Positions 6,930 to 32,314 of a stretch of 49,742 nucleotides of DNA are shown in pieces; the first letter of the stretch is position 1; each line of letters begins with the position of its first letter. Source of the stretch: Chloroflexota bacterium (GTDB taxonomy: Bacteria; Chloroflexota; UBA6077; CF-72). The notes under the pieces were generated by a model, which was not told the DNA's origin, searched no databases, and was given only the letters and a program-made list of their open reading frames with translations. Where the stretch lies: the NCBI GenBank assembly GCA_005883405.1, contig VBGG01000136.1, positions 1-49,742 of the forward strand, in the 5' to 3' direction. The position numbers and the translations under genes were made by a program.

Positions 6930-7514
6930 TTAGCCTTCCGTCGCGCGGCCGTAAATGTCGTCGAGCGACAGCTCACCGCCGATGCACGGAAGGGGTATCA
7001 CGCCCTCGCCGACGATCAGTTCGAGTTGCCACTCGTCGCCGTCGCGCCAGTGTCGCTCGACGCGGCGCTGGTCTTGCGAGACGATCAGGTACGCCTCGAG
7101 CGAGGCTATTCGCGTGTAGGCTAAGAGCTTCTCACCACGGTCGATACGCTTGGTGCTGTCGGAGAGGACCTCGACGATAATGCACGGTCGCTCGCTGTAG
7201 CGTTCGTGTTGGTCAGTCCGGTCACAGACGATGTGGACGTCGGGGTAATAGCCAACTTCGCCAACTGCAGATGCAGCCTTGAGCAGCATGTCGCTCCCAT
7301 AGATGCGACATCCGTGTCCCACAGCTTCCTGCCCAAGACGGAGGAAGATGCTGGCCGCGACATCGTTGTGTCGGCGCCAGGCACCTGCCAGAGCGTAGAC
7401 GTATCCGTCCACATACTCGTACTTACGCTCGGCCACCTCCTCCAGAGCGAGGAATTCGTCGAAGCTCAGCGGTTCTTCAAAGCTCAGCGGTTCTTCGACG
7501 GCGGCAGTGCTCAT
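6930..7514 (-). CDS. Uma2-family (DUF820) putative restriction-endonuclease-like protein
   Basis: 194 aa from the ATG at 7514, which overlaps the fabF TGA. Pattern: YEYVDGYVY, PDVHIV, PCIIVEVLSDST, EKLLAYTRIASLEAYLIV. Confidence 0.75.
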   Translation of the reverse strand: MSTAAVEEPLSFEEPLSFDEFLALEEVAERKYEYVDGYVYALAGAWRRHNDVAASIFLRLGQEAVGHGCRIYGSDMLLKAASAVGEVGYYPDVHIVCDRTDQHERYSERPCIIVEVLSDSTKRIDRGEKLLAYTRIASLEAYLIVSQDQRRVERHWRDGDEWQLELIVGEGVIPLPCIGGELSLDDIYGRATEG

Positions 7515-8761
7515 CACGCTTCCTCCCACTTCTTGAACACGGCCACGCTGTTCTGGCCGCCGAAACCGAAGCCGTTCACGATGACGTTGCGGATCGGCAG
7601 CTTGCGGGGTTTCCATGGCACGTAGTCGAGGTCACACTCGGGATCTGGCGTGAACTGGTTGATGGTGGGCGGGATGCAACCCGTCTCCAGCGCTTTGATC
7701 GCCGCTACGGTGCTCAGCGCGCCGGCCGCGCCCAGCAGATGGCCGATCATCGACTTCACCGAGCTGACCGGAATGCGGTAGGCGTGCTCGCCGAGCGCAA
7801 GCTTCAACGCCTTCGTCTCGGTCGAGTCATTCAACGGTGTGCCCGTGCCGTGGGCGCACACGTAGTCGATCTCGTCGGGTCTAAGATCGGCGTCCTCGAT
7901 CGCCTTCGCGATCGCGCGTCTGGCGCTCTCACCGCTCGGCTCGGGCGCGCTGACGTGGAAGGCGTCACCCGTGATACTGCCGCCGCACAGTTCGGCGTAG
8001 ATCCGCGCGTCGCGCGCGCGGGCGTGCTCCAGCGTTTCGAGCACCAGGATCCCGGCGCCTTCGCCGAAGACAAAGCCATCGCGGTCCCTGTCGAACGGTC
8101 GACTGGCTGTCTGGGGATCATCGTTGCGCCGCGAAAGTGCGCCCGTGCGCGCCATCGAGATGAAGGCCAGCGGCAGTACGGCCGACTCCGTGCCGCCGGC
8201 CACGACCGCCGCCACGTCGCCACGTCGCAGAAAGTGCAGCGACTCGAACATCGAGTACACGCCCGCGGCGCAGGCGGCAGTGTTCGTGACGACGGGGCCT
8301 TTGATTCCATACGTCATCGACACCTGGCAGGAGGCCATGTTGGGAATCATCAGCGGCACCATCATCGGGCCGACGCGTTCCCAGCCCCTGGTCACCAGGG
8401 TCTCCATCTCGTCGGCCACGGCGCGGATGCCGCCGCCGCCGGTGGCGATGATGGCGCCGATGTCCCATGCGTTGGAATCGTTCACCTCGAGGCCGGCGTC
8501 AGCGAGGGCCTGACCGGCGGCGGCGATCGAGAACTGGGCGAAGCGCTCCATGCGCCGCGCCGCTTTGCGGTCCATGTAGTCGCCAGGATCGAAGCCCTTC
8601 ACCTCTGCCGCGATCTGGACGGGCAGGCCTTCGGGATCAAACGTCGTGATGCGACCCGCGCCCGACACGCCCGCTAGCAAGTTTTGCCAGTACTCGTCGA
8701 CCGACAGCCCGATCGGACTGATGCAGCCGAGGCCGGTAACGACGACGCGATTGCCGTACAT
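7514..8761 (-). CDS. fabF: 3-oxoacyl-ACP synthase II
   Basis: 415 aa. Cys-His-His triad contexts are NTAACAAG, CAHGTGTP and SMIGHLLGAAG. Canonical C-terminus NGFGFGGQNSVAVFKK. Confidence 0.92.
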   Translation of the reverse strand: MYGNRVVVTGLGCISPIGLSVDEYWQNLLAGVSGAGRITTFDPEGLPVQIAAEVKGFDPGDYMDRKAARRMERFAQFSIAAAGQALADAGLEVNDSNAWDIGAIIATGGGGIRAVADEMETLVTRGWERVGPMMVPLMIPNMASCQVSMTYGIKGPVVTNTAACAAGVYSMFESLHFLRRGDVAAVVAGGTESAVLPLAFISMARTGALSRRNDDPQTASRPFDRDRDGFVFGEGAGILVLETLEHARARDARIYAELCGGSITGDAFHVSAPEPSGESARRAIAKAIEDADLRPDEIDYVCAHGTGTPLNDSTETKALKLALGEHAYRIPVSSVKSMIGHLLGAAGALSTVAAIKALETGCIPPTINQFTPDPECDLDYVPWKPRKLPIRNVIVNGFGFGGQNSVAVFKKWEEA

Positions 8762-10090
8762 TCAGATCCGCGCTGCTCCGCGGTCGGGGCTGTCGGCGGC
8801 TGACGGGCGGAAGGCCGAGAGAGTGTGAGAGATGTCCGCCTTCGCCCTGACAAGCGAAGGGGTGGTCGGCGGCGCGAGGCCGAAGCTGTTGCTCATGGCC
8901 GCGCTGGGCGTCCAGCGCCGCGCCTTGTTCGGGACGTAGTCCAGGTCACACTCGGGATCGGGGTGTTCGTAGTTGATCGTCGGCGGCAGCCAGCCGGTCT
9001 CGATCGCCTTGACGCAGGCCAACGCCTCGATGGCGCCGGCGGCGCCGAACATGTGCCCGGTCATGCTCTTGGTCGACGAAACGGCCAACTGTCTGGCGTG
9101 CTCGCCGAAGACGTTGTTGATGGCCGCTGTTTCGAAGCGATCGTTGTACGGCGTCGACGTTCCGTGCGCGTTGATGTAGCCGATGTCGGCGGCCTGCAGG
9201 CCAACGCTCCGAGACGCGTCGCGCAGCGCCGCTCGCATGACCTTGGCCGCACCGGCGCCCTGGTCTCTCGGTTGGACCATATGGAACGCGTCGTTGCCGC
9301 TCCCGTAGCCGACGATCTCGCAGTACACCCGCGCGCCCCGCTGCGCCGCGTGTGCAGCTTCCTCGAGCACCAGCACGGCCGCGCCTTCGGAGATGACGAA
9401 GCCGTCGCGCTCCGCGTCGAATGGTCGACTCGCGCGTTTGGGCTCGTCGTTGCGCGCCGAAAGTGCCCGCATGTTGATGAATCCAGCGAAGATCACCGGC
9501 AGAATGCTGGCTTCGGTGCCGCCGGCGACCACGACATCTGCGTCGTCGCGCGCGATCGTCTTGAGCGCCTCGCCCACCGCATGGCTACCGGTGGCGCACG
9601 CGCTGGCCACGGCCATATTCGGCCCTTCGGCGCCCAGCGCAATGGCGAGCAGACCAGAGGCAGAGTCGGGCAGGAAGTGCGGCAAGAACATCGGCGAGAC
9701 GCGGTCGGGCCCGCGCTCGAGCAGAATCTGCTGCTGGGTGAGCATCTTCTCGACCCCGCCGGCGGCGGTGCCGAACACGACGCCCACCCGCTCCGGACAT
9801 TCGGCCGACATGTCCAGAGCTGCGTCGGCGACCGCTTCCTTGCCTGCCACCAGCGCGAACTTTGCACTGCGGTCCATATGCCGCAGCTCTTTGGACGAAA
9901 TGTGGTCTTCCGGCTTGAAGTTCTTGATTTCGCCGCCGATACGCACCCCGAAGCCGGTTGGATCGAACAGCGTGATGGTGTCGATGCCGGAGCAACCAGC
10001 GAGCAGGTTCGTCCAGCTCTCGGCGACGCAGTTGCCCACGGGCGTGACGGCGCCGAGGCCCGTCACCACGACGCGCCGCGGCTCAGGCAT
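8762..10090 (-). CDS. Second beta-ketoacyl-ACP synthase (KAS I/II family) with a divergent, extended C-terminus
   Basis: 442 aa. Triad contexts are ASACATGS, NAHGTSTP and SMTGHMFGAAG. The C-terminus reads NSFGLAPPTTPSLVRAKAD plus a 23 aa tail instead of GFGG.N..LVF. Its stop abuts the fabF ATG. Confidence 0.85.
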   Translation of the reverse strand: MPEPRRVVVTGLGAVTPVGNCVAESWTNLLAGCSGIDTITLFDPTGFGVRIGGEIKNFKPEDHISSKELRHMDRSAKFALVAGKEAVADAALDMSAECPERVGVVFGTAAGGVEKMLTQQQILLERGPDRVSPMFLPHFLPDSASGLLAIALGAEGPNMAVASACATGSHAVGEALKTIARDDADVVVAGGTEASILPVIFAGFINMRALSARNDEPKRASRPFDAERDGFVISEGAAVLVLEEAAHAAQRGARVYCEIVGYGSGNDAFHMVQPRDQGAGAAKVMRAALRDASRSVGLQAADIGYINAHGTSTPYNDRFETAAINNVFGEHARQLAVSSTKSMTGHMFGAAGAIEALACVKAIETGWLPPTINYEHPDPECDLDYVPNKARRWTPSAAMSNSFGLAPPTTPSLVRAKADISHTLSAFRPSAADSPDRGAARI

Positions 10091-10120: not shown

Positions 10121-11125
10121 CTACTTGCCTGCGGCGTCCTCCCGCGGTCCGAGCAGCGCCACGACCGCGTCGTTGAGGCTGATCGCCTTGACGTCGCTGC
10201 TGATGCGACGAATCAGTCGCGACAGCACCTGGCCAGGCCCGATCTCGACGAACGTGTCCACCCCGTTGGCGACCATCTCGCGCACTGAGCCCACCCACTC
10301 GACCGGGGCCACCATCTGCGAGGCCAGCTCCGCGCGAATGTGCTCGGCGCTGGTGCGCACCTGGCCGGCGATGTTGGTGACCACGGGCACCTGCGGGTCT
10401 CGCAGCGGAGAGCGGTCGATGATCTCGGCCAGCCGCGAGGCCGCCTGCTGCATCAACGGCGAGTGCGACGCGATGCTGATGCGCAGGGGCACGACCGTCC
10501 GTGCGCCGGCTTCGCGGATCAGCTCGATGGCCCGGTTGAGCGCGGCAAGTTCGCCCGAGATGACGAACTGCTCGGGCGAATTGGCGTTCTCCACGCTGAC
10601 GATGCCGCCGGTTTCGCTGGACGCCTGCTCGCAAGTTTGCTCGAGGCACTGCCGCTCGAGGCCAATGACGGCCGCCATGCCGCCCGGTCGGTGATTGCCC
10701 TGCTCCTTCATCAGCCGTCCGCGCTCGCGGACGAGCCGCAGCGCGTCGCTGAACTCCAGCGAGCCGGCCGCGACCAGCGCCGTGTACTCGCCCAGGCTGT
10801 GGCCGGCCACGAAGCGCGGCGGCTGCCACTTCTGGCCCACCGCCTCGAGCCGTTCCCGCATCGCGGCCAGACAGGCCAGCGACACGGTCAAGATGGCCGG
10901 TTGCGCGTTGATCGTGTCTTCGAGCTCTTCGGCCGGTCCCTCGAAGCAGAGCTGAGACAACTCGAAGCCGAGGACTTCGTCGGCCTGTTGGAAGACCCGT
11001 CGCGCAGCGCTCGATGCGTCGTACAGGGCTTTGCCCATACCGACGTACTGTGATCCCTGTCCTGGGAACACGAACGCCAGCTTGTGGGCGTCCCGCCCGG
11101 TCACTTCAGCCGTAGCGACACTCAC
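10121..11125 (-). CDS. fabD: Malonyl-CoA:ACP transacylase
   Basis: FVFPGQGSQYVGMG and the GHSLGEY active-site motif. 334 aa. Confidence 0.92.
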   Translation of the reverse strand: MSVATAEVTGRDAHKLAFVFPGQGSQYVGMGKALYDASSAARRVFQQADEVLGFELSQLCFEGPAEELEDTINAQPAILTVSLACLAAMRERLEAVGQKWQPPRFVAGHSLGEYTALVAAGSLEFSDALRLVRERGRLMKEQGNHRPGGMAAVIGLERQCLEQTCEQASSETGGIVSVENANSPEQFVISGELAALNRAIELIREAGARTVVPLRISIASHSPLMQQAASRLAEIIDRSPLRDPQVPVVTNIAGQVRTSAEHIRAELASQMVAPVEWVGSVREMVANGVDTFVEIGPGQVLSRLIRRISSDVKAISLNDAVVALLGPREDAAGK

Positions 11126-11788: not shown

Positions 11789-12000
11789 GCCCATCGAGTC
11801 GAGCGCCGGCCACGGTGGTGACGGCTCTGGCGCTGGCGCTGATCAACGTGGGCCTGGCGGCGCTGGTCGTGGACGCGGTGGGGGCGCCCAGCTTCGCCCC
11901 TCCATGGGTAGCGCTGGTGCTGCTGGTGACCGGCGTCCTGGCCGGCATCGGCGCGGTGATGCTGTGGCGGCAATACCTCACCGCGGCGCGTGGACGCTGA
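11785..12000 (+). CDS. Small hydrophobic protein with two predicted TM helices
   Basis: 71 aa. The TTG start overlaps the upstream stop (TTGA). There are two long Ala/Val/Leu stretches. Confidence 0.4.
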   Translation: MSPSSRAPATVVTALALALINVGLAALVVDAVGAPSFAPPWVALVLLVTGVLAGIGAVMLWRQYLTAARGR

Positions 12001-12046
12001 CGCGGCGAAAGAAAACGCTTCCGGTACACTCCGCGACCGTCATCTC

Positions 12047-13717
12047 ATGCCGCGACCTGTCGCGTACCTGGTGGTCTTCGTTTCGAGCTGCTGCACGCTG
12101 ATCCTGGAACTGGTGGCGGGGCGCATTCTGGCTCCGTTCATCGGCGTATCGCTGTACACGTGGACGAGCATCATCGGCGTCGTCCTGGCGGGTATCTCGT
12201 TGGGCAACTACCTCGGCGGTCGCGCCGCCGATCGCTGGCCGCAACGCCGCACGCTGGGCATCCTGCTGGTCGCCGGCGGTCTGGCCAGCCTGGCGATCTT
12301 GCCGCTGATCACCATCGCCACGTCGATCCCCACCGGCGACCTGGTCGACCCGAACAACCGCCTTGGCGGGTTGTTGCCGCTCGATCGCGCCGCGCTGCTG
12401 ATCCTGCGCATCGTACTGATCACGACGCTGATCTTCCTTCCGCCCAGCTTCATCCTGGGCATGGTCTCACCCGTGGTCATCAAGCTGACGTTGCGCGACC
12501 TGGCGCACAGCGGTGGCCTGGTCGGCAAGGTGTACGCGCTGTCGACGTTGGGCAGCATTCTGGGTACCTTCGCCACGGGCTTCGTCCTGGTGCAGCTGTT
12601 GGGCACACGCATGATCGTGCTCGGCGTCGGCATCGTCCTGCTGGCGATGGCCGCCCTGTTCGGCGACCTGGTGCGCGTCGGCCGGGCAGCCGCGCCGATT
12701 GCCGCCGGTGTGTTGCTGGTGGGGCTGCTGGTGCCGGCGCGCAACGTCAAAGCGTACGGCTGCCTCGACGGAGTCGGCCTCGAGATGGACTGCGTACAGC
12801 GCTCCGTCAAGGACGGCTGGGATCAGGCGACCAGCACGGGCTGTCTGCACGAGACCGCCTACTACTGCATCCGCGTCGCCGACAATCCGGCGGCCTCGGA
12901 CCATCAGACGGTGAAGGAGCTGATCCTCGATCACCTGGTCCACAGCTACAACTCGCTCGAGGACCCCAACTTCCTCGAGTACGGCTACATCAAGGTGTAC
13001 GCCGAAGTCGCTGAGTACCTCGCCCAGCGTGTGCCCGACCAGGCGATTCGGGTGTTGTACGTCGGCGGCGGAGGCTACACGCTGGCGCGGCACATCGAGG
13101 CGACCTACCCCAACGCTCGCCAGGAAATCATGGAGATCGATCCCGGCGTGACCCAGACGGTGTATGAGCAGCTAGGTGTCGAACGTTCCAGGACAAACAT
13201 CACGACCTACAACGTGGACGGGCGGCTGATGATCAATCAGCTCCTGGTGCGCAACGGCGGCCAGTACGACCTGATCATCGGCGACGCGTTCAACGACCTG
13301 TCGATCCCGTATCACCTGACCACGCTCGAGTTCGACCAGGACCTCAAGCGGCTGCTCAAGCCGGATGGCTTCTACCTGGCTCTGGTGATCGACAAGCTGC
13401 GCGGTGGCAAGTTCATGCCGGCCTACACGGATACGGTGCTGCGGGTGTGGCCAGCGGTCCAGGTGCTTTCGGATAGTGAGCCATGGGAAAGCTCGGCGCC
13501 AAGCACGTACGTCGTCGCCGCGGGAAACGCCGCGGTGGCGCCGGACCGCCTCGCGGGCCTCCATGGTCAGGGCCAGAATGGCAGTGTGGTGACCCACATC
13601 ATGCCCGGCGAGCTGATGCACCAGTGGCTCGACTACGCCCAGGCGCCGATCCTGACGGACGACTACGCGCCGGTCGACAATCTCATCGCGCCCGTTTTCG
13701 CCGAACGCGGTATCTGA
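12047..13717 (+). CDS. Fused membrane domain / spermidine-synthase-like (polyamine aminopropyltransferase family) protein
   Basis: An N-terminal ~230 aa multi-TM region (LILELVAGRILAPFIG...) is followed by a methyltransferase-fold region (VLYVGGGGYTLARH, EIDPGV, IIGDAF). Confidence 0.8.
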   Translation: MPRPVAYLVVFVSSCCTLILELVAGRILAPFIGVSLYTWTSIIGVVLAGISLGNYLGGRAADRWPQRRTLGILLVAGGLASLAILPLITIATSIPTGDLVDPNNRLGGLLPLDRAALLILRIVLITTLIFLPPSFILGMVSPVVIKLTLRDLAHSGGLVGKVYALSTLGSILGTFATGFVLVQLLGTRMIVLGVGIVLLAMAALFGDLVRVGRAAAPIAAGVLLVGLLVPARNVKAYGCLDGVGLEMDCVQRSVKDGWDQATSTGCLHETAYYCIRVADNPAASDHQTVKELILDHLVHSYNSLEDPNFLEYGYIKVYAEVAEYLAQRVPDQAIRVLYVGGGGYTLARHIEATYPNARQEIMEIDPGVTQTVYEQLGVERSRTNITTYNVDGRLMINQLLVRNGGQYDLIIGDAFNDLSIPYHLTTLEFDQDLKRLLKPDGFYLALVIDKLRGGKFMPAYTDTVLRVWPAVQVLSDSEPWESSAPSTYVVAAGNAAVAPDRLAGLHGQGQNGSVVTHIMPGELMHQWLDYAQAPILTDDYAPVDNLIAPVFAERGI

Positions 13718-13820: not shown

Positions 13821-15134
13821 ATGCGCGTAACTGACCTCCTTCGCACGATGGACATCTTCGAGGCGATCCCCTCTGAAGAGCTCGAGACCATCGCTCAACT
13901 GCTGCGCGAGCGCCGGTTGGCCGAGGCAGAGGTCCTCTGCCGCCAGGGAGATCCCGGCGACGCGCTCTTCATCGTGACCGGCGGCCGCATTCGCCTGTCG
14001 ACCAGCGACCCCAGCGGCAACGAGAAGGTCCTCACCTACTTCACCGACGGCCAGTTCTTCGGTGAGATGTCGTTGCTCACCGGCGCGCCGCGTTCGGCCA
14101 CGGCGACCGCCGAGACCGACAGTCAGCTGCTGGTGCTCGACAAGGGTTCCTTCGACGAGCTGCTCGCCAGCCACCCCGAAATCATGCGCGAGATGCTCAA
14201 GGTCGTCTCGCAGCGCACGCTCCAGACCAACCAGCAGCTACTGGCCGATGAGCCGGGCAGCGCCGTGACGGTCGGTGCGGGCCACGTGTACGCCATCTTT
14301 TCACCTCGTGGCGGCGCGGGCAAGACCATGCTGGCGATCAACATGGCCGTCAGGCAGGCGAAGGAGCAGCCGGAGCGGACCGCGCTTCTGGATCTCAGCC
14401 TGACCTTCGGCCACGCCGCCGCGCTGCTCGGTTTGAAACCCGAGACCTCGCTGGCCGCGGTTCCCGCCGAGAGCCTTTCGGACTTCGATCGCCGTACGCT
14501 TGGCCAGTACCTGGTCGAGCACCCCACCGGACTGCAGGTCCTGGTGGCAGGCACCCGCCCCGAAGAGGGTGAGGTGGTTACGGCAGCGCACGTCCGCGCG
14601 GCGCTCGGCACCATGAAGCGCCAGTTCAGCGCCACGTTCGTCGACTGCGGCAGCACCTTCGATGAGCCGACGATCGCCGCGCTCGAGATGGCCGACCGCA
14701 TCCTGGTCGTGTGTACGCCCGAACTGAACACCCTGCGGGACGTACGCGAGTGCCAGCGAGTGTTCGGCGAGATCATCCACCTGGACGGGAAGCGGGTCAA
14801 CTTCATCTTCAACCACAACCAGCCCTTCTCGGTGCTGGCGCGAGAGCAATTCGAGTCGGCGCTCGAGCAGGAGATGAGTTTCGAGCTACCCCACGCGGGC
14901 GAAGCCGCCTACAAGGCTGCCAACCGCGGTGAGCCGCTGGTGCTCAGCCACGGCGGGTCACCCTACAGCAAGGCTGTGGAGAAGATCGTCCAGGCCATCG
15001 TCCCCGCCGAGCCCAAGGGGAAGAAGCGCTCACTCAACGTCATCCATCATGCGACAGCAGCCAGGCCTGCCAGGACGGGTCCCCGCCCGGCGGGTGGACT
15101 GCTCGGCGTTCTGCGCGGCAAGCGCGCCAGTTAG
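13821..15134 (+). CDS. Cyclic-nucleotide-binding domain fused to a ParA/MinD/CpaE-like P-loop ATPase (copy 1)
   Basis: N-terminal cNMP-binding pattern (GDPGDALFIV..G, FFGEMSLLTGAPRSATA). Walker A is SPRGGAGKT (Lys codon 14322-14324). No HTH domain. Confidence 0.8.
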   Translation: MRVTDLLRTMDIFEAIPSEELETIAQLLRERRLAEAEVLCRQGDPGDALFIVTGGRIRLSTSDPSGNEKVLTYFTDGQFFGEMSLLTGAPRSATATAETDSQLLVLDKGSFDELLASHPEIMREMLKVVSQRTLQTNQQLLADEPGSAVTVGAGHVYAIFSPRGGAGKTMLAINMAVRQAKEQPERTALLDLSLTFGHAAALLGLKPETSLAAVPAESLSDFDRRTLGQYLVEHPTGLQVLVAGTRPEEGEVVTAAHVRAALGTMKRQFSATFVDCGSTFDEPTIAALEMADRILVVCTPELNTLRDVRECQRVFGEIIHLDGKRVNFIFNHNQPFSVLAREQFESALEQEMSFELPHAGEAAYKAANRGEPLVLSHGGSPYSKAVEKIVQAIVPAEPKGKKRSLNVIHHATAARPARTGPRPAGGLLGVLRGKRAS

Positions 15135-15148
15135 GAGGCCCCCAAGCT

Positions 15149-16372
15149 ATGCCGTCGCGAGTGCTCGAGCTGCTGCGCTCGATGGATCTGTTCACCGAGC
15201 TTGACGACCACGAGCTGGGCAAGATCACCCGTCTGCTCAAGGAGCTCAAGATCGCTGAGAACGAGGTGATCTTCAATCAGGGTGACCCTGGCGACGCCCT
15301 GTACATCGTGTTGCAGGGTCGTGTGCGCATCGCCACCACCGACAGTTTTGGTCGCGAACGCGTGCTGGCCTTCTACGGGCCGGGCGAGTTCTTCGGCGAT
15401 ATGGCGGTGCTGACGGGCGACCCGCGTTCGGCGACCGCCGGCGCGTCATCCGATGTACGCCTGCTGCAGCTGCGCAAGGACGACTTCGATGTGCTGGTGG
15501 CCACCAACATCGGCGTCATGCGCGGCATGATGCGGGTGATGGTCGAACGCCAGGCGGCACTCAACACGCGCCTGACGCAAGAGGTCGGCGCCACCCAGGG
15601 CGACGTGCGCGGCCAGGTGACGGTCGTCTTCTCTCCGCGCGGTGGCGCGGGCCAGACCGTGCTGACCACCAACCTCGCCGCCGCGCTGGCGCAGCTCACG
15701 CCTGACCGCGTCGTGGCCGTTGATCTGGATCTGCTGTTCGGACACATGCCGATGCTGCTGGATCTGGTGCCGCGCACCGCGCTAGCCGCCATTACCCCGG
15801 CCGCGATTCGGGCGCTCGACCGCGACAGCCTTGCCTACTACCTCACCAAGCACGCCGAGTCGTCGCTGCGCGTGCTGGCGGGTACGCTGCGACCCGAGGA
15901 GAGCGAGCTGGTCACTGGCGAGCACGTGCGCGCCATCCTCGAGCAGCTGCGTCGACAGTTCGTCCACATCGTCGTCGACGCGGGCTCGCGGTTTTCGGAG
16001 CCGTGTCTGGCGGCGCTCGAGGCGGCTGACCAGGTCATCGTGCTGAGCACGCCCGAGGCAGGTGCCGCTCACGCCACCCAGGAGACCCAGCGCGTACTGC
16101 GCGACCTGCTGGCGGTGCCCGCTGAGCGCGTCCGCTTCGTCCAGAATCAGCCGCGGCCGTACGGCAAACTGTGCGCCAACGAGCTGGCATTTCAGGTTGG
16201 TAGCGACCGTGTCCTCGAGGTCCCCTTCGGTGGCGAAGAGGTGAGCAAAGCGGGTCTGACCGGCTTCCCGCTGGTGATGAGCCGCACCGGCAATCCCACC
16301 ACCAAAGCGATCATGCGCCTGGCTCGGGACCTGGAAGAGAGCAGTCGCGAGCTGCTCGCGCTCTCGCGTTAA
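15149..16372 (+). CDS. Cyclic-nucleotide-binding domain fused to a ParA/MinD/CpaE-like domain (copy 2, Walker A Lys replaced by Gln)
   Basis: Same architecture as copy 1 (GDPGDALYIV, FFGDMAVLTGDPRSATA). Walker A is SPRGGAGQT (CAG 15653-15655). An AGGAGG SD overlaps the copy 1 stop. Confidence 0.8.
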   Translation: MPSRVLELLRSMDLFTELDDHELGKITRLLKELKIAENEVIFNQGDPGDALYIVLQGRVRIATTDSFGRERVLAFYGPGEFFGDMAVLTGDPRSATAGASSDVRLLQLRKDDFDVLVATNIGVMRGMMRVMVERQAALNTRLTQEVGATQGDVRGQVTVVFSPRGGAGQTVLTTNLAAALAQLTPDRVVAVDLDLLFGHMPMLLDLVPRTALAAITPAAIRALDRDSLAYYLTKHAESSLRVLAGTLRPEESELVTGEHVRAILEQLRRQFVHIVVDAGSRFSEPCLAALEAADQVIVLSTPEAGAAHATQETQRVLRDLLAVPAERVRFVQNQPRPYGKLCANELAFQVGSDRVLEVPFGGEEVSKAGLTGFPLVMSRTGNPTTKAIMRLARDLEESSRELLALSR

Positions 16373-16380
16373 AACCCACC

Positions 16381-16491
16381 CCCTCTCCCTCTGGGAGAGG
16401 GCTGGGGCGAGGGGTGCGTATTTTTCGCGAACGCTAGATCTCGTACGCACCCCTCACCCGCGCTACGCGCGGCCTCTCCCAGAGGGAGAGG
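16381..16491. repeat. Compound palindromic intergenic element, family C copy 2
   Basis: Same terminal hairpins and GGGTG-type inner stem as copy 1. It lies between convergent gene ends. Confidence 0.9.
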
Positions 16492-16497
16492 CGGATC

Positions 16498-21698: not shown

Positions 21699-22262
21699 AT
21701 GGCCAAAAGTCGCGTAAAAGCTCGGGCCGAAAAGGATTCGGCCATCGACGACCTTGCCACTCGTCTCGGCCGCGCTGAGATCGCCGTACTCACCGAGTAC
21801 CGCGGGCTCAGCGTGTCCGAGCTGCAGGATCTGCGCGGTCGGCTGCGACCACTCGGAGTGGACTACGTCGTCGCCAAGAACACGCTGACCCGCTTCGCCG
21901 CCGAGCGCAGCGGCCGCACTGGCATCGTCGACGACCTGGTCGGCCCGACCGCCATCGCCTTCGGCGCTGACCCGGTAGCCACCGCCAAGGCGCTGCAAGA
22001 CTACACACGCGTCAATCGCGTGTTCGTGCTCAAGGCGGGGCTGCTGGGCGACCGGCGGATCGACCGCAAAGAGGTCGAGCAGCTAGCGAGCCTGCCGCCC
22101 GCCGAGCAGCTGCGGGGTCGCGTCTTCGGCATGATCGTTGGGCCGCTGCAGCGGACGGTCAGCGTGCTGTCCGCGCCGCTCGCCGGTATGGCGCGACTGA
22201 TCGACGCGCGCCGTCAACAACTTGAAGAGACTGGCGGCGAGGCCGCAGCAGGAGGTGGAGAT
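21699..22262 (+). CDS. rplJ: 50S ribosomal protein L10 (uL10). It has no stop codon of its own and the frame continues into rplL.
   Basis: L10-like sequence through ...[22 protein letters not shown]. The next codon is the rplL ATG in the same frame (single 317 aa ORF in the track). Confidence 0.85.
22250..22257 (+). promoter_or_regulatory. Shine-Dalgarno sequence AGGAGGTG for rplL, embedded in the rplJ reading frame
   Basis: It lies 5 nt upstream of ATG 22263. Confidence 0.75.
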
Positions 22263-22652
22263 ATGGCATCGGTTGACGAGCTGGTAGAAAACTTGAGTGA
22301 TCTGAAGGTGCTCGATCTGGCGAATCTGGTCAAGCGCCTCGAAGAGGCCTGGGGTGTGTCCGCGGCTGCTGTCGCGGCGCCAGTCGCGGTCGGCGCGGGC
22401 CCGGCGACCGACGGCGCGGCGGCTGCGCCCGTCGAAGCGCAAACCGAGTTCGACGTGGTCTTGAAGGACTTCGGCGCAAAGAAGATCGAAGTCATCAAGG
22501 TCGTGCGCGAGTTGACCAACCTGGGTTTGAAAGAGGCCAAGGATCTGGTCGAAGCAGCGCCCAAGCCAGTCCTGGAGAGCGTTGCCAAGGACGCGGCCGA
22601 CGCCGCCGCGGGCAAGCTCCGCGACGCGGGCGCCACAGTAGACGTAACGTAG
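22263..22652 (+). CDS. rplL: 50S ribosomal protein L7/L12 (bL12)
   Basis: 129 aa. An N-terminal dimerisation helix, an Ala/Pro hinge and the C-terminal domain [35 protein letters not shown]. Confidence 0.95.
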
Positions 22653-30150: not shown

Positions 30151-31373
30151 CCACCTCGCTCTCGAAACCGTTCGCCATGCTCAAAGACGGCTCGTCGACG
30201 TCGGCCAGAGGCTTTCGCGCGGGCGCGGTGGCAGCCGGTATCAAAGCCTCGGGCAACCCCGACCTCGGCATGTGGGCTTCCGAGGCTCCGTGTGTCGCCG
30301 TGGCGACGTTCACCCAGAACAGCTTTCCGGCCGCGCCGGTCATCCTCAGCCGCGACCGGCTCAGGACGCATCCGACGGCGCACGCAGTGGTCTTCAATGC
30401 TGGCAACGCCAACGCGTGCAACGGCTCGACGGGACTTGACGATGCCCGTGAGATGTCCGAGCTGGCGGCCCAGGCGCTCGGCATCGCGCCCGAGCTGATC
30501 CTGGTCGCCTCGACTGGCATCATCGGCCACCGATTGCCGATGGACCTCGTTCGAACCGGCATCCCGCGCATCCAGCTCAGTCCCGACGGCGGCCACGCGG
30601 CGGCGCTTGCCATCATGACCACCGACACGCGGCCCAAGGAGTGCGCCGTCTCGCTCGAGATCGATGGTCGCGAAGTACGCATCGGCGCGATGACGAAAGG
30701 TGTGGGCATGATCCACCCCAACATGGCGACGATGTTGGCCTTCATCGGCACCGATGCCCGCCTGGAGCCACGCTTCGCTGCCACCGCGCTCAAGCACGCC
30801 GTCGATCGCACCTTCAACATGACCACGGTGGACGGCGACACCAGCACCAACGACTCGTGCTTTCTGCTGGCCAACGGTCTGTCGGGTGCGCCGACGCTCG
30901 TCGGCGGGAGCGCCAAAGCGGAGCGGTTCGTCGTCGCGCTGGAGGCGGTCTGCACCGATCTGGCCCGCAAGATGGCCGCGGATGGCGAGGGAGCCTCCAA
31001 GCTCCTGCAGGTGGACGTGACTGGCGCGGCCAGCGAAGCCGATGCACGCGCCGCCGCCCGCGCCGTAGTCGGCTCGAGTCTGGTCAAGGCGGCCCTCCAC
31101 GGGGAGGACCCGAACTGGGGCCGCGTGTTCGCCGCGGTGGGTAACTCCGCCGCCCGTGTCGACACCACCCGTGCCGCGTTGTGGATCGGCTCGATCCAGG
31201 TCGCCCGCGACGGTGGCGGCACGGGCGTCTCGAAGGACGAGGCGCGCGCGCAGATGCACGCTTCCGAGGTCACCATGCGCGTCGACCTCGGCCTCGGCAG
31301 CGCGTCCGCTCGCGCATGGGGCTGTGACCTCACCGAAGCCTACGTGGTCGAAAACAGCGCCTACTCAACGTGA
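30147..31373 (+). CDS. argJ: Bifunctional ornithine acetyltransferase / N-acetylglutamate synthase
   Basis: 408 aa. Autoprocessing-site context HPNMATMLAFIGTDA. ATGA overlap with argC. Confidence 0.92.
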   Translation: MTTSLSKPFAMLKDGSSTSARGFRAGAVAAGIKASGNPDLGMWASEAPCVAVATFTQNSFPAAPVILSRDRLRTHPTAHAVVFNAGNANACNGSTGLDDAREMSELAAQALGIAPELILVASTGIIGHRLPMDLVRTGIPRIQLSPDGGHAAALAIMTTDTRPKECAVSLEIDGREVRIGAMTKGVGMIHPNMATMLAFIGTDARLEPRFAATALKHAVDRTFNMTTVDGDTSTNDSCFLLANGLSGAPTLVGGSAKAERFVVALEAVCTDLARKMAADGEGASKLLQVDVTGAASEADARAAARAVVGSSLVKAALHGEDPNWGRVFAAVGNSAARVDTTRAALWIGSIQVARDGGGTGVSKDEARAQMHASEVTMRVDLGLGSASARAWGCDLTEAYVVENSAYST

Positions 31374-32314
31374 CGCTGGCGCACCTTTCGACAGATCAGA
31401 AGACCGCGGCCCTGATCGAGGCGCTGCCGTACATCTGCGAGTACGTCGGCAAGACGATCGTGGTCAAGGTCGGCGGATCGGTGGGCGAGGAGGGTACCGT
31501 CCTGGACGATGTCGTCTGGCTCAAGCGCCTGGGCATCAACCCGGTGCTGGTGCACGGCGGCGGCCCGCAGATCTCGGATCGCCTGAGCCAGCTGGGCGTC
31601 GAGACGCGCTTCGTCGAGGGTAGGCGCTTTACCGACGAGCAGACCCTGGAAGTCGTCCACGAAGTCCTGATGCGCATCAACGGCGACTTCGTGTCCTAGC
31701 TCAACGGTCACAAGATCCCGGCCTGGGATTGCAATGGGTTGGATGGTCAGATGCTGCAGGCGCGACTGCGCGACGAACGCCTCGGCCTGGTCGGCGAAGT
31801 TGCCGCGGTGAACCTGCGCCCGATCAAGTCACTGGTCGAGCAGGGCTACGTCGTGGTCATCGCGCCGCTTGCGGCTGGCCCCGACTCGCAGCCGCTCAAC
31901 GTGAATGCCGACACCGTGGCTGGCGAAGTGGCTCGGGCGTTAGGCGCCGAGAAGCTGGTGCTGTTCACCGACGTGCCAGGTGTGCTCGACCGCGAGGGCG
32001 CTGTCCTGCCCGAGCTGAGCCGCGAGCAGGTCGAGCGCATGCTCGACGATGGCACGATCCGGGGCGGCATGATCCCGAAGATTCAGGCCTGCCTGCGCGC
32101 ACTCGAAACGGTGCCACGCGTCCACGTCCTGGATGGGCGTGTGCCACACGCGTTGATTCGCGAACTGTTCACCACCGAGGGTGTCGGTACCATGCTGACT
32201 TCGTTCCGGGTTCCGGGTTCCGAGTTCCGAGTTGAGAGCGCCACCTCAATGGACAACGCGGAACGCGGAACGCGGAACGCGGAACAAGCTACCGGGAAAG
32301 GAACCAGCGTCTGA
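31370..32314 (+). pseudogene. argB: Acetylglutamate kinase interrupted by one in-frame TAG (31697-31699). The C-terminal ~36 aa are encoded by a heptamer repeat.
   Basis: The two track ORFs (31370-31699 and 31739-32314) are in the same frame. Together they give a full-length ArgB (KVGGS, HGGGPQI, NVNADTVAG, GGMIPK). GTGA overlap with argJ and ATGA overlap with argD. Confidence 0.8.
32203..32285. repeat. Heptamer-array inverted repeat (family B) inside the 3' end of argB, with arms at 32203-32233 and 32257-32285
   Basis: GTTCCGGGTTCCGGGTTCCGAGTTCCGAG faces GCGGAACGCGGAACGCGGAACGCGGAAC. Confidence 0.85.

Follow-up and report, generated by a model that had tools for sequence, protein, structure and literature searches.

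What might two adjacent proteins do when each joins a cyclic-nucleotide sensor to a ParA/MinD-like P-loop domain, and one of them lacks the lysine of its Walker A motif? The question is raised by a contig of a Chloroflexota bacterium (GenBank assembly GCA_005883405.1, contig VBGG01000136.1, positions 1 to 49,742; this whole 49.7-kb stretch is referred to as the window), in which two genes lie in tandem on the forward strand. Copy 1 (13821..15134, 437 aa) retains the Walker A lysine, and copy 2 (15149..16372, 407 aa), of the same architecture, carries glutamine in its place. TadZ/CpaE proteins dock and localise the Tad (Flp) pilus machine, and proteins of the MinD, ParA and TadZ kinds act as nucleotide-sandwich dimers. 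To our knowledge, the control of TadZ/CpaE proteins is poorly understood, and their receiver-like domain is without a known input. The interpretation that we favour, with somewhat more confidence than doubt, is that the pair are paralogous TadZ/CpaE-type proteins in which a CAP-type cyclic nucleoside monophosphate (cNMP) sensor replaces the receiver-like domain, and which would form a cNMP-gated, Tad-organising hetero-oligomer.

Placement of the P-loop domain

The P-loop domain was compared, as a family profile in hhalign, with two positional TadZ proteins, that is, proteins occupying the TadZ slot of canonical tad loci. The scores were 217 (E 4.6e-30) and 145 (E 9.4e-20), as against 95 (E 5.6e-13) for E. 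coli MinD. At the level of sequence, the domain is thus shown to belong to the TadZ/CpaE branch, and not to MinD or ParA. The pair family and the positional TadZ proteins have in common a P-loop that starts with RGG or KGG and a DLDLxFG motif; the aligned Arthrobacter TadZ reads KGGVGKT...DLDLQFG and the Rhodobacter TadZ RGGVGAT...DLDLQFG, the latter being naturally without the Walker lysine.

A tblastn search of 72,556 plasmids with the P-loop domain of copy 1 (E<=1e-5) returned 153 records. Among the 30 matches listed, all those annotated were described as TadZ/CpaE, CpaE family, 'pilus assembly/fimbrial protein' or 'AAA family ATPase', and none was a ParA, in a collection rich in ParA genes. 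Two of the 'AAA family ATPase' matches were inspected, and both sit between cpaB and cpaF. Of the solved structures, 3ea0 was the best relative both by profile (E 8.9e-30; archaeal MinD, E 1.4e-20) and by fold (template modelling score, TM, 0.89; root-mean-square deviation 2.3 Å); 3FKQ, the TadZ of E. rectale, was not among the top sequence or fold matches.

The curated NCBIfam models gave sub-threshold scores throughout, with 62 bits for minD_arch and 54-57 for minD_bact (cut-off 213), 40 and 25 for CpaE_hom_Actino (TIGR03815; cut-off 154) and about 38 for ParA_partition (cut-off 180). However, the two positional TadZ proteins scored 27 and 59 bits with TIGR03815, both below its cut-off of 154, so that this model does not cover the TadZ family; moreover, since they give a pattern identical to that of the pair, sub-threshold matches of this kind do not discriminate between families. 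The hallmarks of MinD were looked for and not found: the pair falls below the curated threshold, the signature lysine is replaced by arginine, the Walker lysine of copy 2 is replaced by glutamine, and the window holds neither minC nor minE.

This placement alters how the glutamine of copy 2 is to be read. The sequence-only reading of this DNA had called the domain ParA/MinD/CpaE-like and expected loss of the P-loop lysine normally to abolish hydrolysis; for a TadZ/CpaE-type domain, in which that lysine is dispensable, the expectation does not carry over. According to the account in PMC10482377 that cites Xu et al. (2012), the E. rectale TadZ is still active as an ATPase although it has lost both lysines. 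Because canonical TadZ proteins tolerate the loss of the Walker lysine, copy 2 need not be a 'dead protomer'. The caution already voiced in that reading was in part well placed, as the lysine is indeed dispensable among TadZ-like proteins (RGGVGAT in Rhodobacter; the E. rectale TadZ); the single-copy relatives that it had also envisaged exist at greater distance (loci L009 and L086).

Sensor, catalytic residues and their conservation

Both proteins match the Pfam family PF00027 (cNMP_binding), copy 1 over residues 31-118 (13911..14174, forward strand, E 6.4e-27) and copy 2 over residues 34-120 (15248..15508, forward strand, E 2.6e-27), and both give weaker Pfam matches to ParA, AAA_31 and CbiA over residues about 155-310. 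No helix-turn-helix (HTH) domain was found in either protein by Pfam and NCBIfam profile searches, which confirms the two-domain architecture without an HTH that had been proposed for them. The phosphate-binding cassette (PBC) is FFGEMSLLTGAPRSATA in copy 1 (about 14055-14105, forward strand) and FFGDMAVLTGDPRSATA in copy 2 (about 15389-15439, forward strand). Their cores, GE...RSA and GD...RSA respectively, follow the cassette pattern Gly-Glu ... Arg-[ST]-Ala, with the key arginine present in both copies and a Glu-to-Asp exchange in copy 2. The glutamate and the arginine are both retained in 38/38 copy-1-type sequences; the arginine is retained in 76/77 copy-2-type sequences, in which the glutamate position is Asp in 44 and Glu in 33. 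The residues predicted to bind cNMP are therefore intact in the pair, a point on which the sequence-only reading had made its proposal depend.

The AlphaFold2 (AF2) models have a mean predicted local distance difference test score (pLDDT) of 87 for copy 1 and 88 for copy 2 (predicted TM score 0.82 for copy 2). Each model shows a CAP-like beta-roll, then a helix of ~25-28 residues, then a MinD-like alpha/beta domain; the predicted N-terminal fold matches CRP and CNB domains, and the C-terminal half is a P-loop fold. Copy 1 ends in a conserved motif, GGLLGVLRGKRAS (15093..15131, forward strand), which follows a variable linker (residues about 394-424) predicted to be disordered. Its consensus among the relatives, GGLL[GAS][AV]LRGKRAS, is strongly conserved. 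In the AF2 model the tail has a pLDDT <50 and no helix, and its hydrophobic moment was reached by 2694/5000 shuffles, a result that is uninformative about amphipathicity. The tail could serve in membrane binding or in partner binding.

The Walker A motif of copy 1, SPRGGAGKT (14301..14327, forward strand), contains Lys168 (AAG, 14322-14324), with Arg163 at the position of the MinD 'signature lysine'. In copy 2 the motif is SPRGGAGQT (15632..15658, forward strand), with Gln169 (CAG, 15653-15655) and Arg164 at the signature position. Switch I is D191-L-S193 in copy 1 (14391..14399, forward strand), with serine at the site of the MinD catalytic Asp40, and D192-L-D194 in copy 2 (15722..15730, forward strand), where it belongs to the DLDLxFG motif that is characteristic of TadZ/CpaE. 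The third position of switch I is Ser in 23, Asp in 8 and Asn in 5 copy-1-type sequences.

Relatives were collected at E<=1e-10, which gave 287 and 335 for the two copies; nearly all come from soil or other metagenomes, and the few with a named source are Chloroflexota. Among the 117 representatives of copy 1, the Walker lysine is present in 116/117 and the signature arginine in 117/117. The copy 2 line behaves differently. Its Walker position is Gln in 112/119 cluster representatives at >=71% identity, Lys in 4 and Glu in 3, and its signature position drifts (R66, Q21, V9, M9 and others, in 119 scorable representatives). The deeper copy 2 orthologues in L001 and L008, at 53-56% identity, keep the lysine, and other copy 2 subclades carry Thr (a large one) or Val, Ala or Arg (smaller ones). 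The glutamine, about whose conservation the sequence-only reading had asked, is thus a derived state of one subclade. The two copies have had an asymmetric fate: copy 1 keeps the Walker lysine and the signature arginine, and copy 2 has repeatedly lost the lysine while its signature position drifts.

Both genes are under purifying selection; against relatives at 72-83% identity the dN/dS of copy 1 is 0.10-0.17 and that of copy 2 is 0.15-0.23 (dS being near saturation). The glutamine of copy 2 is therefore a selected state, and neither decay nor a sequencing error. A pseudogene or a sequencing error as the source of Gln169 was ruled out by the presence of Gln in 112 cluster representatives together with the dN/dS of about 0.15-0.23.

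The two copies share 43% identity over 391 residues (E 4e-108). A neighbour-joining (NJ) tree separates the copy-1-type from the copy-2-type proteins, all those of either type forming a single clade in which members from window-type loci are mixed with members from loci linked to tad genes. Because both clades hold both types of locus, the duplication predates the separation of these lineages. The tree and the residue states, taken together, indicate that the Walker lysine was lost more than once and in the copy 2 line only, the number of losses being approximate because the tree carries no support values. On a wider scale, ~60 full-length 50%-identity clusters with the overall layout were found among 1.84 billion representatives, and across these the lysine position is K, R, T, V, Q, E, G or N.

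Tandem loci, Tad linkage and neighbourhood

The closest full-length matches among GTDB species-representative genomes are Chloroflexota metagenome-assembled genomes, at 63-83% identity to copy 1. The patterns used for the GTDB scan fell in the cNMP domain, with the result that, of the 80 loci, 75 held unrelated cNMP proteins and only L005-L009 were useful. The tandem arrangement, whose conservation had also been left as a question, is kept in 13 fetched loci, namely in every close locus fetched (L001-L008 and L091) and in the more distant L085, L088, L089 and L090, with an intergenic spacing of 5-43 nt or an 11-nt overlap.

In the four distant loci the orthologous pairs lie divergent from adjacent tad genes; in L090 the pair is 51% identical to copy 1 and 50% to copy 2. 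The tad genes encode a CpaB-like protein (TIGR03177 56 bits, or a SAF domain), T2SSF proteins, TadE and a TadG-type protein (Pfam Tad). Each locus has two T2SSF genes (TadB and TadC), except for the incomplete L085 contig, which has one, and T2SSE (TadA) is present in L088 and L090. In L089 (5747-8555) and L085 (5-1829) T2SSF genes come straight after the CpaB-like gene, with no TadA/CpaF (T2SSE) in the fetched stretch. In none of the four loci was a tadZ found between cpaB and tadA; in Chloroflexales the usual order is rcpC-tadZABC, and Tad pili are a candidate motility organelle there (PMC7332563).

Signalling genes accompany the same loci. In L090 a class III nucleotidyl cyclase, a response regulator and a hybrid histidine kinase directly adjoin the pair; a GerE-type response regulator lies beside it in L085, and the same type of regulator together with a hybrid kinase in L089. 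In L088 a histidine kinase stands at the far end of the tad genes. In other lineages, orthologous pairs are thus tied to Tad genes and to a cyclase. Furthermore, in all four (L085 1960-4408, L088 8698-11260, L089 8755-11299 and L090 8469-11287) the copy-1-type protein has its PBC arginine replaced by His, Gln or Ala and keeps the Walker lysine, and the copy-2-type protein keeps the PBC arginine and has the Walker lysine replaced by Thr. The predicted sensor site and the P-loop have therefore degenerated reciprocally in the Tad-linked pairs.

The genes of the window have a third-position GC content (GC3) of 0.86 in copy 1 and 0.84 in copy 2, in a chromosomal window of 66% GC, values typical of real genes. 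The gap between the stop of copy 1 and the ATG of copy 2 at 15149 is 14 nt. The TAG stop (15132-15134) is overlapped by the Shine-Dalgarno sequence of copy 2, AGGAGG (15133..15138, both on the forward strand), 10 nt 5' of the ATG; translation of the two genes is coupled, and they make up one operon. These coordinates, the Walker A codons, the overlap and the gap all agree with those read from the sequence at the outset. A scan limited to sigma-70 consensus sites found no such promoter upstream of copy 1. Downstream of the pair, between convergent genes, a nested inverted repeat (16379..16494) precedes a convergent 186-aa open reading frame (ORF). Its outer arms are of 22 nt (95% complementary), each forming a hairpin of its own, and its inner arms of 16 nt (94%). 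The repeat is probably a bidirectional terminator closing the two-gene operon, and it could alternatively be a small palindromic repeat element.

The 5' part of the window runs metH, an ahpC-like gene, two fabF-like genes, fabD, an MFS/spermidine-synthase gene and the pair; the pair is followed by the 186-aa ORF, which has no family match, a LysM-glucosaminidase, trmI and nusG-rplK-rplA-rplJL, and further 3' by a PAS kinase, a NiFe hydrogenase, arg genes, prfA/prmC and hisS. The division and cell-wall (dcw) genes ftsZ, ftsA, ftsQ, murB, murC and ftsW lie at the far end. Pfam searches of ~40 ORFs detected no tad, cpa, par, min, flagellar or cyclase gene in the window, and tblastn with CpaB, TadA, TadB, TadC, TadE, TadG and a class III cyclase gave no match there, so that the absence of adjacent tad, cpa, par, min and flagellar genes reported earlier extends across all 49.7 kb. 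The LysM-glucosaminidase is two genes from the pair in the window and in L003 and one gene from it in L091, and L001 has three further intervening genes.

Several features of the neighbouring genes were recorded besides. The MFS/spermidine-synthase fusion (11990-13717, forward strand, 575 aa, NF037959 364 bits) is inverted relative to its counterparts in L001 (7910-9859), L003 (7859-9907) and L091 (6572-8524). In these three loci a transmembrane ORF of 72-83 aa lies between it and copy 1, an ORF that the window does not have. The two beta-ketoacyl synthase paralogues (7514-8761 and 8762-10090, reverse strand) are adjacent to each other and adjoined by the fabD-like acyltransferase (10121-11125, reverse strand), an arrangement conserved in relatives. 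A single 317-aa ORF at 21699-22652 (forward strand) carries Ribosomal_L10, L12_N and L12_C, an apparent rplJ-rplL fusion; since an equivalent fused gene is also called in L003 (17633-18589, 318 aa, ~75% identity), it looks like a lineage trait and not an error. The acetylglutamate kinase (AA_kinase) is split into N- and C-terminal parts (31370-31699 and 31739-32314, forward strand), which could reflect a frameshift, a pseudogene or an assembly error.

Proposed mechanism, rival explanations and known systems

In the proposed mechanism copy 1, with Lys168 and Arg163, would be the nucleotide-competent partner. Copy 2 probably still binds nucleotide, because Thr170, Asp192, Asp277 and Asn333 are conserved, and would be impaired in hydrolysis and supply no trans-acting basic residue. 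The two would assemble as a nucleotide-sandwich hetero-oligomer. Binding of cAMP or cGMP would be signalled through the long helix between sensor and P-loop domain, the equivalent of the CRP C-helix, and this signal would gate assembly of the complex and hence the docking or positioning of its cargo. A second messenger would in this way exert direct post-translational control over where and whether the Tad machine is assembled, or, in the lineage of the window, possibly another envelope complex. The 'positioning or scaffolding' activity suggested by the sequence-only reading would most likely be organisation of the Tad pilus, because orthologous pairs elsewhere are Tad-linked. As copy 1 has serine at the MinD-Asp40 position, a slow switch or scaffold is likelier than a fast oscillator.

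Several observations weigh against this interpretation. In seven loci of the close clade, the same tblastn searches for Tad and cyclase genes were also negative up to 10 kb from the pair, which there stands among housekeeping genes in conserved order (fabF/fabD ... MFS-spermidine synthase ... pair ... LysM-glucosaminidase ... trmI). More distant single-copy relatives exist in L009 (TGGAGVS) and L086 (RGGAGVT), without tad neighbours. In the TadZ/CpaE family, loss of the Walker lysine does not prove inactivity; copy 1 has Ser193 in place of the equivalent of the MinD catalytic Asp40, and may therefore itself be a slow ATPase.

A stricter form of the same idea is tentative, and on balance we lean against it. 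It would make the pair an obligate heterodimer of a catalytic and a pseudo-ATPase TadZ paralogue, both equipped with a cyclic-nucleotide sensor, carrying the cAMP/cGMP signal of a class III cyclase under two-component control directly to Tad assembly or positioning; in the lineage of the window, where the genetic link with the pilus genes has been lost, it may have gained other cargo.

It is unlikely that the paralogues act separately, copy 1 as a working ATPase and copy 2 as a non-catalytic cNMP receptor or buffer, or as an adaptor for another partner. Copy 2 loses both the Walker lysine and the trans-acting signature residue, the reciprocal losses in the Tad-linked clade indicate a division of labour, and single-copy relatives exist, all of which would suit such an arrangement. 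However, tight translational coupling or overlap is seen in every tandem locus, and both proteins have been co-retained over ~50% sequence divergence; the reciprocal degeneration, moreover, is what would be expected if the two formed an obligate complex for which a single sensor and a single P-loop are required.

A similarly low probability attaches to a MinD- or Ssd-like cNMP-gated regulator of septum placement or cell-wall remodelling, in which the tail of copy 1 would bind the membrane and the protein would position a division or peptidoglycan-hydrolase factor independently of pili. The top NCBIfam scores are indeed those for minD_arch and minD_bact (54-62 bits), with 25-40 for Ssd/CpaE_hom_Actino, but they lie far under the cut-offs of 154-213 bits, and the positional TadZ proteins show an equal sub-threshold MinD pattern, the family profile being much nearer to TadZ than to E. 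coli MinD. The hydrophobic-plus-basic motif that ends copy 1 after its disordered linker has a composition like that of the MinD membrane-targeting sequence, yet its hydrophobic moment is no better than that of shuffled tails. The pair of the window clade is unlinked from tad and near the LysM-glucosaminidase; this synteny is non-specific because it is part of a long housekeeping block, and no minC or minE is nearby.

A ParA-type DNA or cargo partitioning pair, or a pair of CRP-like transcription factors, is highly improbable and both were rejected, since the weak Pfam ParA and CbiA matches and a cNMP domain resembling that of CRP are set against the lack of an HTH domain, of parB and of similarity, the absence of plasmid ParA proteins from the tblastn matches listed, and a ParA_partition score of ~38 bits where the cut-off is 180.

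The TadZ/CpaE kind of protein is already known, and the pair with a cNMP sensor would be an undescribed variant of it: in the literature searched, a limited collection, we found no description of a cNMP-TadZ or cNMP-CpaE fusion, and no characterised system of this arrangement, in agreement with the sequence-only reading. A TadZ lineage with a recognisable cAMP/cGMP sensor offers a testable link from signal to pilus, to which one locus adds a cyclase and a two-component system. The cNMP-responsive heterodimer, if it is real, would give Tad pili a post-translational switch worked by a second messenger, so far undescribed, and Tad pili are a candidate organelle of both motility and adhesion in Chloroflexota. 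For pseudo-ATPase evolution in the MinD/ParA superfamily the pair is, besides, a natural experiment, with one partner keeping the P-loop lysine and the other losing it repeatedly.

Among known systems, the pair most resembles the TadZ/CpaE proteins (A. actinomycetemcomitans TadZ, C. crescentus CpaE and E. rectale TadZ). The likeness lies in the MinD/ParA fold, the atypical Walker A motif and DLDLxFG, in a Walker lysine that is dispensable in some members, in a P-loop domain preceded by a sensor-like N-terminus, and in orthologous pairs that lie beside tad loci without another tadZ. The N-terminus of the pair is, however, a CAP-type cNMP-binding domain, whereas that of TadZ/CpaE is a receiver-like domain (ARD). 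In addition, the two genes occur as a conserved tandem whose catalytic residues are asymmetric, and copy 1 has a conserved C-terminal tail motif. The orthologous pairs are divergent from the tad operon and not placed between cpaB/rcpC and tadA/cpaF, and the pair of the window is unlinked.

The solved Chlorobium tepidum 'ParA family ATPase' 3ea0 likewise lacks the Walker lysine (KGGDGGS), and its switch I, D-I-S, is like that of copy 1; in contrast, its solved chain of 245 residues has no cNMP domain, is functionally uncharacterised and shows ~21% identity. MinD, FlhG (FleN) and mycobacterial Ssd share the fold, the logic of the nucleotide-sandwich dimer and regulation by partners, and MinD has a C-terminal membrane-targeting peptide. 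The pair differs from them in having arginine or a variable residue in place of the signature lysine and no MinC, MinE or flagellar partners, and in a similarity much weaker than that to TadZ. Finally, CRP/FNR proteins and CAP-domain effectors such as Bd1971 (cNMP-EAL) have the same kind of sensor and PBC, with a long C-helix leading to the output; in the pair that output is a P-loop scaffolding domain, and not an HTH or enzyme domain.

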